Positions 21,458 to 26,140 of a stretch of 64,000 nucleotides of DNA are shown piece after piece; positions within the stretch are counted from its first letter, which is position 1; each line of letters begins with the position of its first letter. Under the pieces are notes generated by a model. That model was not told the DNA's origin. It saw nothing but the letters and a program-made list of their open reading frames with translations, and made no database searches. Location of the stretch: positions 15,692,770 through 15,756,769 of the forward strand of contig CM119271.1 in assembly GCA_051294375.1 (NCBI GenBank), given 5' to 3'. The position numbers and the translations under genes were made by a program. This DNA comes from Paraspadella gotoi. Lineage: Eukaryota; Animalia; Chaetognatha.

Positions 21458-24400
21458 TCATGACTTGAGAGCTTTCGCGTGAAACTTGACGTGATCCTCC
21501 ATGAAGGTCGAGATGAAAAAGTAGGAATGATCGTAGTTGGGCTGCATTCGCAACTCGATCGGCAGACCCTTCCTCTTGAAGGCGTCGTAGAGCCTCTCGG
21601 TCATGAGGCTCGACTCCAAGAAAGGATCCGCCGTTCCTTGATCCACGAGAACCGGCACCGAAGGTCCAGAATAAGTACCGGCCAAGAGGCTGGCGTCGTA
21701 TTCCCTCCCTGCCTCCACGGAGCCGAGATAACCCTGGAACGCTCTTTTGCCCCATTCCGACTCGGTGGGGTTGGAAATCGGCGAGAGCGCCGAGACGGAT
21801 CGGTATTTGCCGGGATTCTTCAAAAAGGCGATCAATGCGCCGTGCCCGCCCATGGAATGACCCATGACCGACTGGCGATCGGAGTCGACGTAGTAAAACG
21901 AATCTATAACATCCGGGAGTTCCTTCGTCACGTAGTCGTACATTCGGTAGTGACTCGACCATGGCGCCACCGTGGCGTTGACGTAGAATCCAGCGCCGCT
22001 GCCGAAATCTGTGAGGTCGTCTTCTCCGGGGATTCCGACCCCGCGCGGACTCGTGTCAGGGAAAACGACGCAGACGCCCTCCGCCGCAGCAGCCGCTGCG
22101 AAGTGAGATTTCGTCCGCGCGTTCTCGTCCGTGCAGGTCAGCCCGGACAAGTAGTAGAGGACCGGGGGAGGCGGCGCAGTTCGGCCCTGTTCATTGACCA
22201 TTTTAATTAATATTACATCTAATGTAAAGAAGATTGTAAATGTACACTCACTTTTGACGGAGGAAGGAAGATAGAAAAAGACATTTCGCACTGACAAGTC
22301 TCGCTCCAGTGAGAGATTTGCTGTAGTCGCCCTGTCGAACAAATAATGTTATAACTCTAATACAAAAACATCCCCATGATGAAGGTTCGCAGAATGACCG
22401 ACTGACCTCCGTGGATCTTGTTGCTCGACTTCAACGACGGAACTCGTTTGGGTCGAAAGGGATTGTCGGAAATGTGGAGGACGGCGCGGAGGCAGTCGCC
22501 CGAGTGGAGGGCGTCGATGGCCTCGTTCACCTTGTCCAAACCTACAAAAGAATAGAATCATCTCTACTCATATTTCCATTATTAATACTCATTATTAAAT
22601 AGAAAAAAATAAATAAAACAGGCTTATAATCCGTACCTTTAAAAGTGTGCGTGACGTAAGGATCGATGTCCATCTCTCCCCTCATGACCGACTGAACCAA
22701 CTGAGGGACTTCGGTCCGACTCTTCCAACCGCCAAAGGCCGTCCCTTTCCATTCTCTTCCCGTCACGAGTTGAAAGGGACGCGTGGAGATTTCCTGACCC
22801 GCCGCGGCCACGCCTGAAGAAGAAGGATAGTAAGTTAATGGTAAGTTAACTATTAAGATAAATGAATCTCAAAACAATAAAACTTTTTAAAACGATAAAC
22901 TAAAGAACTCTTTCCAAAAAAAAACCTCTCACCCTCGATCCGCTTTTAAAAACTGAAAAAAAAAAGGTTCAAAAGAGACAAGTTTAGAAATAGATTTCCC
23001 ACTCGAAACTCCCCATCGACCCCAAATTCCCCCTCACCGATCACGCAGGACTGGCCCCATCCTCGATGCGCCACCTCCAGCGCCTCCCGCATGACGTTGA
23101 CGTTGCCCGTGCAGTCGTAGGTGTAATCGTATCCCCACTTGTGCCTCTCGAGCAGCCAGTCCTTGGTGCTGCCCACGTCTTTGGGAGAGACGCAGTCGTG
23201 GGCGCCGAGTCGTTTGGCGATCTCGAACTTGTTCTTCAAGAGATCGACGCCCACGATGTAACGGGCGCCGCTCGCCTGAAGTTTTAATAATAATTAGCAT
23301 CATTACACTATTTAATAATTATCTTTCTGGTCGGCAGCAAGACTTAAAGCTGCCTCACTGCTGTCCGTCCTCAGCCTCGTCTCAATGGCTGAGCAGGCTA
23401 AATCATCTCATTCCATCCGTGCGTCCCGGGTTCAATCCCTGGGTATCCCGGTTCTGGCTTAAATGTGACGGTGCCGGTATAAACATGCCAGTGACAGGAG
23501 GCGGTCACTGAGGGTCCGCAGCCCCTACGCCAGTTGGTGAGATACCGCGCCCCGGGTATCACAGGCTATCCTCCCGTTGCCATAAGTGGTGAGCCCTACT
23601 CTCGAACACGCACCGCTGCGCACCGTGCGCCCACGCTTACGTCGCTTAGGGTATGCATATCACGCCTATGCCCTACTTCTCTGGTAACGCTCCAGACTCG
23701 CTCGCTCGCCCGCTCGCTCTCACTATGGCAATGAATCAAAACCTTCTCTCAGACATCTCCTCAGGATTAGGCCCCTGTGGAGAAGTCTGGTGGGGGATCC
23801 GTGGCAGCAAGACTTAAAGCTGCCTCACTGCTGTCCGTCCTCAGCCTCGTCTCAATGGCTGAGCAGGCTAAATCATCTCATTCCATCCGTGCGTCCCGGG
23901 TTCAATCCCTGGGTATCCGGTTCTGGCTTAAATGTGACGGTGCCGGTATAAACATGCCAGTGACAGGAGGCGGTCACTGAGGGTCCGCAGCCCCTACGCC
24001 AGTTGGTGAGATACCCCGCGCCAACGAAGAAGTTTCACAGGCTATCCTCCCGTTGCCATACTTCATCGATATCCGGGAACCTTGCCTTGGCGGCCTGAAT
24101 GACGGCGAGACCCAGGGCGCCGAGTCCGTAGACAACGACGGTGCAGTTGGGTTCCATCTTGGTGTTGTTGAAGACGGCGCCCCATCCCGTGGAGACGCCG
24201 CAACCGAGCATACAGACTTTGTTAAGGTCCGCTCCGGAATTTATCTGCAGCAAGAATCAGTTTATCATTTCTAATGATTAAAGTCTTCATTTGGTTAATT
24301 GGCTAAATGAGTTTCTTGTAGAAATTTAGAGATAAAGACCAGAGAGACACCCGGAATTTGGGCAGAGATAATTTGTTTAAACAAACGTCGTCGTCTTGTT

Positions 24401-26140
24401 GAAATCATTCACGACTTCCAACGCCACGTAATGTTCGTTAAAATATAAATTAAATATTAGTATTTAAATATAAGATGGTTTTCACGCTAAATTTTCATTC
24501 AGTGGCGGTATATTCACACCGCCTCACGTCCACCATCGTTCAGCCAATACCATTGGCTCAGAGGAGGAACGCACCATCCCAGGCGTTGCGCTCCGTCCAC
24601 AGTCCTAAGGACTTGCCTCTGCGTTGGCAAAGCGAGACCGTCCTAGGGTAACCGCGCCAGTGACTGGAGGCGTCACTGAGGGTCGGAAGCCCCCCAAAGT
24701 CAACAGTGAGATGCCCCATCCCAATGGGCATCACAGGCAACCCGACTGTTGCCATAATTCCAAACCTAAAAAGAAAATGACCTAAAAAGAAAATGAGCTA
24801 AAAAGAAAATGAGCTAAAAAGAAAATGAGCTAAAAAGAAAATGAGCTAAAAAGAAAATGAGCTAAAAAGAAAATGAGCTAAAAAGAAAATGAGCTAAAAA
24901 GAAAATGACCTAAAAAGAAAATGACCTTAGCGGCTGAAATCTCCGCGATGACAGAGTATTCGGCAAAGGAGGAGCATCCCATGAAGTGATACAAAGTCTT
25001 CCCGTCCTTGGAGAGTCGCGAGGTTCCGTCCGGCATGACGCCCTGACCCTGGGTCGACCTGTTTCCGGAGCAAGGACGCTCGCCTTTTCAATGTTTCTCC
25101 ACAATCTCATTTGCATATTGAAGTCTAAGTCTCTCTCTCTATACCTGATAGAGGGACAGAGATTCGTCTTCGAACTCTCGCAAAAGACGCAGTCGTGTTT
25201 CTTGCATTCGGGAGTGTAGCAGGGAATGACGATATCGCCCGTTTTTACCTGAAATAATTATTTTATTAATTGATATCTGTCTGTCTCTCTCTTTGTCTGA
25301 GTCTCTCTCTCTCTCGCACCGACTGAACGCCCTCGCCGACGCTTTCGACGACGGCGGCGGCTTCGTGGCCGAGGACGCAGGGGAAGAGGCCTTCAGGATC
25401 GAGTCCGTCCAGGGTATAGATGTCCGTGTGACAAAGAGCGTTGGCGATGTTCTTCACGCGGACCTTTTAATATCATATAATAATTCGATTGAAACATTCT
25501 TTAAAATATTATACCTACCACATTTAAAGGGAGACCAGGTACTCTGGGATTGAATAAACGAGACTGAGAGGCTTGATTAAAAGGTTGCAGGGTTCTGATA
25601 AGGTATTATCTTGTAGGCGTGATGATGCCTTAAAACCACCGTAGCCAGTCCAAAGTCAGAGGCAAGATAGCTTATTTATTTAATTAATGGATAATTTTAA
25701 AATTAGTTGTACAAATTTCATTATAATCAAATCGGTTTAAACTGTATAAAACTGTATTCCTCCTGACTTTGAACTATAGTGGGTTAAGGCCTCCAAACCT
25801 CTTAAAGATTAACAACGTAACAAGACTATGCAAGTTTTCAGTTAAGTCTATTTTATAAATCCTAGTTTTCTTGGCATCAAAGACGGGCAACAAGGACAAG
25901 GACAATCAATACGACGACAAAGAATGAGCGACCAACCTCGCCGGCTCTGGGTGGATCGACTTGGATGTCGGTCACATCGAGTTTCGTCTTTGGCGCCCAA
26001 GCGACGGCCGCTTTGCAGACGATGCTCTTCCCGTTGGTTTCGCGCAACGAATTGACCAACCGACTGCAGAATCGCCCCGATGGCGCCGCCGCTGACTTGG
26101 CGGCGCCGCGGCCGAGCAGCGCCGTCGCGTTTTTAAACAT
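21458..26140 (-). CDS. ADH5-ESD: Fusion of class III alcohol dehydrogenase / S-(hydroxymethyl)glutathione dehydrogenase (ADH5) with S-formylglutathione hydrolase (ESD); 10 exons, about 700 aa
   Basis: Exons 26140-25937, 25463-25320, 25248-25145, 25058-24926, 24244-24086, 23275-23038, 22813-22637, 22541-22407, 22331-22252, 22186-21458 sum to 2103 nt. ADH motifs [39 protein letters not shown] motifs LSGLTCT, PDTSPRG, GHSMGG, DHSYFF; no stop between the domains. Confidence 0.93.
23333..24059 (+). mobile_element. tRNA-derived SINE family A, head-to-tail 1.5 copies (470-bp period) in ADH5 intron 5
   Basis: About 250 bp near-identical at 23333 and 23803; A-box-like tggctgagcagg (23386) and B-box-like gggttcaatcc (23428). 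Confidence 0.75.
24500..24760 (+). mobile_element. Diverged relative of SINE family A
   Basis: Keeps gccagtgac.ggaggcg.tcactgagggtc, gtgagat.cc...gg.atcacaggc and gttgccataa with different loop sequences. Confidence 0.6.
24765..24925. repeat. 16-bp tandem repeat x10 starting at the ADH5 exon 4 donor
   Basis: ctaaaaagaaaatga(g/c) repeated; on the coding strand (g/c)tcattttctttttag. Confidence 0.95.
25475..25720 (+). mobile_element. Repeat family B copy in ADH5 intron 1 (a degenerate inverted copy follows at about 25780-25850)
   Basis: ttgaaacattctttaaaatatt...ccaggtactctgggattgaataaacg...caaagtcagaggcaagatagcttatttatt...caaatttcat. Confidence 0.75.

Follow-up and report, generated by a model that had tools for sequence, protein, structure and literature searches.

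A transcribed fusion of class III alcohol dehydrogenase and S-formylglutathione hydrolase in an animal, related to ciliate FSF1 and likely of horizontal origin

ADH5 and ESD, which encode class III alcohol dehydrogenase (ADH3, also named FALDH or GSNOR) and S-formylglutathione hydrolase (SFGH), are generally regarded as housekeeping genes that are passed on by vertical descent. The present study concerns a gene located on the minus strand at positions 21458..26140 of a 64,000-nucleotide (nt) stretch of animal DNA (the window, meaning the whole stretch analyzed), in which both enzymes are encoded as a single polypeptide. The separate ADH5/GSNOR and ESD/SFGH of animals have the same predicted chemistry and folds as this protein, but are the products of two genes, and bacterial pairs, presumably frmA-frmB, show the same gene order but are likewise two genes. 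With respect to fused forms, PMC3143110 (citing Stover et al. 2005) gives EAR92957 as FSF1, a ciliate FALDH-SFGH fusion, and reports reverse-order SFGH-FALDH fusions from diatoms.

The window protein resembled FSF1 of Tetrahymena thermophila (EAR92957, P0113 in our homologue set) in domain order, in the grouping of both halves within one clade, in shared insertions and deletions (indels), and in 59.5% identity over 681 amino acids (aa). It differed from the ciliate protein in its animal host, in nine spliceosomal introns and in an obligate N-terminal presequence, and its linker was 10 aa in length, compared with approximately 15 aa in Tetrahymena FSF1. Judged from the sequences, both halves share descent with FSF1 and the protein is a new member of this ciliate family, the new aspect of which seems to be the presence in animals along with the apparent horizontal history. 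The gene is likely a horizontally acquired FSF1-type fusion, not a fresh fusion of native ADH5 and ESD. Our overall reading, a 700-aa fusion of the FSF1 clade that originated horizontally from a ciliate-like protist and is predicted to perform two-step formaldehyde detoxification in mitochondria, is held with fair confidence.

The ten-exon gene model encoded 700 aa (75.8 kDa) with zero internal stops, and Pfam recognized ADH_N, ADH_zinc_N and Esterase in this order. Exon 1 (25937..26140) contains the ATG, a basic, acid-free presequence of ~33 aa predicted to be mitochondrial and the start of the ADH domain, and the contig of run X1 covers 25935-26162. Exon 2 (25320..25463; ADH_N, E 1e-8, with contig joints) carries C79 and H101, and exon 3 (25145..25248) carries the cysteine loop C131, C136, C139 and C147 as well as an insertion of 2 residues that also occurs in protist-type ADH3. 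Exons 4 (24926..25058) and 7 (22637..22813), both of the ADH half, were given by contig joints and the gene model. Exon 5 (24086..24244) contains C210 and the glycine motif for NAD binding, and is followed by a GC donor, as seen from a joint skipping 810 nt; the GC-AG intron 5 (24085-23276, 810 nt) has a donor that was absent from the sequence-only reading made earlier of this DNA. Exon 6 (23038..23275) holds ADH_zinc_N (E 2.1e-14, with contig joints). The fusion junction is located in exon 8 (22407..22541), where the ADH C-terminus continues through the 10-aa linker into an ESD N-terminus lacking its own Met. Exon 9 (22252..22331) is an 80-nt ESD exon bordered by two GT-AG introns, 22406-22332 (75 nt) and 22251-22187 (65 nt), and exon 10 (21458..22186) encodes the ESD core with S569, D645 and H678 and the stop codon (Pfam Esterase, E 8e-46; 278.6 bits against human SFGH 3fcx).

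Transcript support came from X1, one run of one study, which was assigned as RNA by guess. It provided a single 3,757-nt contig with a depth of 169.6 that was joined across all nine introns; the joints around the 80-nt exon skipped exactly 65 and 75 nt, and 0 letters differed in the listed pieces. The depth over 22244-22417 was 89.7, equal to the exon share of the fusion contig, and no intron-retaining contig was present there. As assembled contigs drop rare forms, X1 establishes the fused form and leaves room for rarer isoforms. Runs X2 and X3 did not cover the locus to any useful extent. The ADH3-ESD fusion is thus real, being transcribed and spliced into a single in-frame polypeptide. All coordinates in the sequence-only reading were correct, including the stop-free run from ADH to ESD, which indeed sits inside exon 8, and both of its predicted junctions of the 80-nt exon were spliced in X1. 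Its proposed check for retention of intron 22406-22332 turned up the fused contig instead, its size of ~75 kDa agreed with the gene model, and the catalytic motifs it described as intact were confirmed by residue alignments. In X2, derived from another organism, two low-depth contigs were ~85% alike to exon 6 (23037-23177) and may represent prey, a contaminant or a relative.

In those alignments, the ADH half retained C79, H101, E102, C210 and R151 as well as C131, C136, C139 and C147. We take C79, H101 and C210 to be the catalytic zinc ligands, the other four cysteines to bind the structural zinc, and R151 to be the Arg at the substrate-binding position of class III ADH. The ESD half retained S569, D645 and H678, aligned to human SFGH 3fcx, which presumably form the Ser-Asp-His triad of SFGH. 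The relative P0001, 77% identical to the window protein, scored 467-480 bits against GSNOR/ADH3 chains and at most 349 bits against other ADH classes, and the top Foldseek matches were GSNOR structures. On the basis of domains, ligands and this class III affinity, the ADH half is assigned to class III ADH (ADH5/FALDH/GSNOR), and PF00756 with the triad assigns the ESD half to the S-formylglutathione hydrolase type.

Homologues were collected by comparing the ESD exon with longer proteins, and the best 120 of 372 matches, most of them without species name, were analyzed. These comprised 106 same-order fusions, 10 reverse-order fusions and 4 others, and the linker was 10 aa in 93 of the 106 scored same-order fusions. 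Three Tetrahymena species were among the named same-order carriers. The others were copepods: Tigriopus californicus (XP_059082560), Eurytemora carolleeae (XP_023326261) and Lepeophtheirus salmonis (XP_040563250), along with Neocalanus flemingeri, Calanus glacialis and Caligus rogercresseyi from EukProt. The first three copies, which span Harpacticoida, Calanoida and Siphonostomatoida, sit on genomic scaffolds of 0.3-41 Mb; the last common ancestor of the three orders is dated to ~446 million years ago in PMC13389597. The copepod fusions share the architecture of the window protein and a 10-11 aa linker, and form the sister or parent clade of the window's clade. In the named copepod proteins the ADH domain begins with a Met, which is missing from the window clade, and the host lineage appears different. 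All the copepod fusions were annotated as one enzyme or the other and never as a fusion, such that single-enzyme database names hide the architecture. No other named animal, fungus or choanoflagellate with the fusion was found among the best 120 of 372 matches.

The sequence-only reading had proposed a bifunctional FALDH-SFGH enzyme that was unknown in animals. The first part stood, in the form of an in-frame transcribed chain in the ciliate order, but the second failed, as six named copepods from three orders have the same architecture in their public proteomes. Among the named matches listed, its occurrence in other invertebrates is confined to copepods, which answers in part the reservation that the architecture might prove common in invertebrates. 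A report of the fusion in animals did not turn up in the literature searched, from which subscription journals were mostly absent, and PMC13389597, an arthropod survey of chimeras from horizontal gene transfer with copepods among its taxa, showed no mention of it in the text passages and the 12 of 15 supplements examined.

Further fusion copies had protist features. Four of six tested were stop-free under ciliate code table 6 and one more had a single stop; one copy starts with telomere-like C4A4 repeats, and one is intronless and lies among protist-like genes. The loci from L022 on (n = 61, mostly bacterial same-order two-gene pairs) contained 0 fusions, and a GTDB scan, of which 4 of the 80 loci kept were examined, gave only two-gene pairs and distant ADHs. 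None of 45 pattern matches in viral contigs was a relative of the fusion. In a cluster search, the clusters containing all three domains had diatoms and green algae as leading members, and carried no information on domain order. The reverse-order fusion was also seen in the dinoflagellates Alexandrium monilatum and Dinoflagellata sp. TGD (P0106, P0107). As a separate observation, three hymenopteran proteins (P0102, P0104, P0109) join CCDC39 to ESD, and these are likely merged gene models or read-through.

Phylogenetic analysis was performed with rows that, for the smaller trees, were hand-picked from larger sets. In the ESD tree, all same-order fusions formed one clade (support 100 over 137 rows with FastTree, and 99 with IQ-TREE) that left out insect ESD, the reverse-order fusions and bacteria. 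The ADH tree also placed the fusions in one clade (support 100; 44 rows, including five shorter or stand-alone entries), from which Monosiga, ichthyosporeans, diatoms and brown algae were excluded. When the halves were concatenated and outgroups added, the same-order clade received 100 and the grouping of the window with copepods 98. The reverse-order fusions of diatoms and dinoflagellates, which combine the same two enzymes in one chain but in the opposite order, fell outside this clade; their rows did not form one clade in the concatenated tree, which suggests that reverse fusion occurred more than once. Among the best 120 of 8,000 scored stand-alone ADH relatives of P0001, the named ones were protists and algae, with no animal. 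A Trp-less ESD segment of 7 residues occurred in the window protein, in every one of the six named copepods, in 6 of the 7 rows from ciliates and in 118 of the other 122 same-order rows, and was found in none of 3 insects and none of 58 bacterial rows.

The descent of the two halves bears on whether the host's native ADH5 and ESD fused de novo and converged on the ciliate order, as the sequence-only reading had implied; that implication is not supported, both halves grouping with ciliate FSF1. A de novo fusion would agree with the nine spliceosomal introns and the host-like codon use, with an ESD half about equally similar to insect ESD and to Tetrahymena, and with a pair of enzymes that has been fused more than once and in both orders. 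Against it, both halves independently joined the ciliate and copepod fusions, and the linker length and indels are the same as in copepods and most ciliate-type rows. Approximately unbiased (AU) tests, with p of at most 0.003 against the animal and holozoan groupings tested, rejected three groupings: the window clade with three insect ESD sequences (p 0.002), a single group of all animal ESD halves (p 0.003), and the animal fusions with holozoan ADH3 from choanoflagellates and ichthyosporeans (p 0.0002). We consider de novo fusion very improbable.

As for the direction of transfer, the animal fusions were nested among ciliate-type rows in the ADH tree (support 94). A protist-to-animal direction is favored, as the ciliate-type rows were more diverse and longer-branched. 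Among the animal fusions, the named copepod proteins were 64-70% identical to that of the window (Tigriopus 66%, Eurytemora 70%), which formed a clade of its own with close relatives at 77-78% identity. This clade was part of a basal polytomy with copepod groups in one tree and stood beside P0009 (support 88) in another.

Several points weigh against the protist origin and the placement proposed here. All trees were quick or FastTree searches, and they contained no bilaterian ADH5, for which holozoan protists served as stand-ins. The 7-residue deletion also occurred in 4 of 11 reverse-order rows and is not exclusive; the ESD half was 54.6-55.2% identical to insect ESD, compared with 53.2% to Tetrahymena; and only the best 120 of 372 homologues were seen, most of them without species name. 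In addition, the concatenated tree gave the animal fusions as sister of the ciliate-type rows (support 81), in contrast with the nesting in the ADH tree, and a position of the window clade outside all copepod-type rows was not rejected (p 0.205).

That sister relationship, and the 252 weaker matches beyond the best 120, would also suit an ancient eukaryotic paralogue that ciliates, copepods and this host retained while other lineages lost or split it. Many losses would be needed, and the best 120 matches held no other named animal, fungus or choanoflagellate carrier. Moreover, the window and copepod copies are 66-70% identical within one short-stemmed clade, yet the host marker points to another superphylum. 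We regard an ancient paralogue as improbable.

The enzyme of the favored reading, a protist-derived fusion, is predicted from established ADH3/ESD chemistry and the intact motifs to act as follows. Formaldehyde would add to glutathione, the Zn/NAD+ domain would oxidize the resulting S-hydroxymethylglutathione to S-formylglutathione, and the Ser-Asp-His domain would hydrolyze the latter to formate, with glutathione freed. Class III ADHs also act as S-nitrosoglutathione (GSNO) reductases, and by analogy the fusion probably has predicted GSNO reductase activity too. The first 33 aa of the window protein have a net charge of +5, no Asp or Glu, and a single Met ahead of the ADH domain, and a similar extension, again with no second Met, is present in six complete members of the window clade. 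The obligate presequence of this clade is predicted from its composition to be of mitochondrial type and to direct import. Separately, N-terminal extensions occur in the copepod-type fusions P0003, P0009, P0011, P0056 and P0157; most of these proteins have another Met where ADH begins, which suggests dual targeting through alternative starts.

An AlphaFold2 model of P0001 (mean predicted local distance difference test score, pLDDT, 86.6; predicted template-modeling score 0.84; linker pLDDT ~85-92) suggests a fixed packing of the two domains. Substrate channeling between them is possible but unsupported. Fusions are known in both orders, and therefore a precise geometry between the active sites would not be needed. 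The two activities would likely benefit from being expressed 1:1 and imported together by a single presequence, and from their closeness rather than from a true tunnel. The same-order and reverse-order fusions form a natural series for the question of channeling versus co-expression and co-targeting.

The locus now forms part of the host genome, where it has nine introns, carries host repeats and uses codons much as host genes do. Repeats in the introns recur elsewhere in the window, and intron 5 contains two 95%-identical copies, 23333-23584 and 23803-24060, of a high-copy element of ~255 nt. The GC content at third codon positions was 0.73, compared with 0.63-0.91 in four neighbors, and codon-usage correlations were 0.55-0.79. 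Contamination is an unlikely source of the locus. Copepods, the closest named relatives, are common prey of plankton predators, which raises the thought of copepod or ciliate prey or symbiont DNA misassembled into the host genome; with a single contig linking the fusion to the downstream gene at 0 differences, intron repeats present elsewhere in the window, an identity of only 66% to Tigriopus and 70% to Eurytemora, and close relatives at 77-78% forming their own clade, such an origin is hardly credible.

The identity of the host was approached through neighboring genes. The neighbor AREL1 was about equally similar to molluscs, chelicerates, insects and deuterostomes (43-56% identity, with nearly all values at 51-56%), and one Logan protein reached 65%. 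In the AREL1 tree, the window sequence grouped with spiralians (Shimodaira-Hasegawa-like approximate likelihood ratio 93) and outside arthropods (99-100), on a long stem; AU tests rejected its placement with insects (p 0.004); the rejection of a placement with arthropods was marginal (p 0.042). No crustacean AREL1 and no annotated copepod occurred among the best 120 matches. The TLC-domain neighbor had relatives at 54-63%, followed by named bivalves and a hemichordate at 38-40%, and the named clusters among its top seven relatives (7 of 150 matches looked up) were two bivalve and one hemichordate. Window genes point to a host that is likely not a copepod. As points against, the host call rests on two genes, and AREL1 has a long stem, an odd composition, and neither a crustacean nor a chaetognath reference.

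A divergent copepod or allied crustacean as host, carrying an inherited, copepod-wide and still protist-derived fusion, would be in line with the support of 98-100 for the window clade with copepods and with an AREL1 reference set without crustaceans, in which the arthropod constraint was rejected only marginally. The rejection of AREL1 with insects, the bivalve and hemichordate TLC relatives, the lack of an annotated copepod among the best 120 AREL1 matches, and the one-strand, operon-like layout described below all speak against it, and we find such a host rather doubtful. A fast-evolving spiralian with an operon-like layout and relatives in environmental collections would suit a chaetognath, which fits best and is the probable host. 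In chaetognaths, about half of the genes are trans-spliced and 18% lie in operons, according to PMC12460157 and PMC2481426.

With such a host, the protist-derived fusion would have arisen by one event in a protist lineage, entered the copepod lineage before the copepod orders split, and made a second entry into the non-arthropod, most likely chaetognath host of the window, with copepods or a related protist as the donor. The more specific course, serial transfer from ciliates to a copepod ancestor and on to predatory arrow worms, in which the gene would have acquired nine introns, entered an operon and come to encode a two-step enzyme dedicated to mitochondria, is put forward only tentatively. 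If true, this history would represent an old eukaryote-to-animal transfer, seen today in three copepod orders as well as in another, likely unrelated animal of the plankton. Possibly, a metabolic gene that is not mobile would also have passed from one animal to another.

The X1 contig (19826-26162) carries the fusion frame and, 328 nt apart, the whole frame of the downstream TLC-domain gene (20294..21130, minus strand; Pfam TLC), with an unbroken piece over 19826-22185. The fusion and its candidate operon partner are a candidate dicistronic or operon transcript, a two-gene contig being no proof of one transcript. The 5' end of the contig (26162) is the base after a pyrimidine-rich, acceptor-like AG, 22 nt ahead of the ATG (window 26162-26164), as may be expected from trans-splicing or from an upstream exon; no spliced-leader letters were found among the listed loose ends of the contig.

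Pfam-recognized genes, one of them below its cut-off, were all on the minus strand (13/13; window 2400-63413), for which p is ~2e-4 under independent strands by hand calculation. They were a nuclear receptor, an AP mu subunit, Ada3, ELM2/Myb, TLC, the fusion, SKA1, Piwi, CCCH-RING, PHD, HECT, UNC-50 and PNTB. The scan was given 142 of 165 minus-strand open reading frames, and none of the 122 plus-strand frames of at least 75 aa passed the Pfam cut-off. The window holds 736 N, with an assembly gap at ~30860-31620. The nuclear receptor at 2400-4570 has zf-C4 and a ligand-binding domain, and is by its look presumably a divergent member of the HR3/ROR type.

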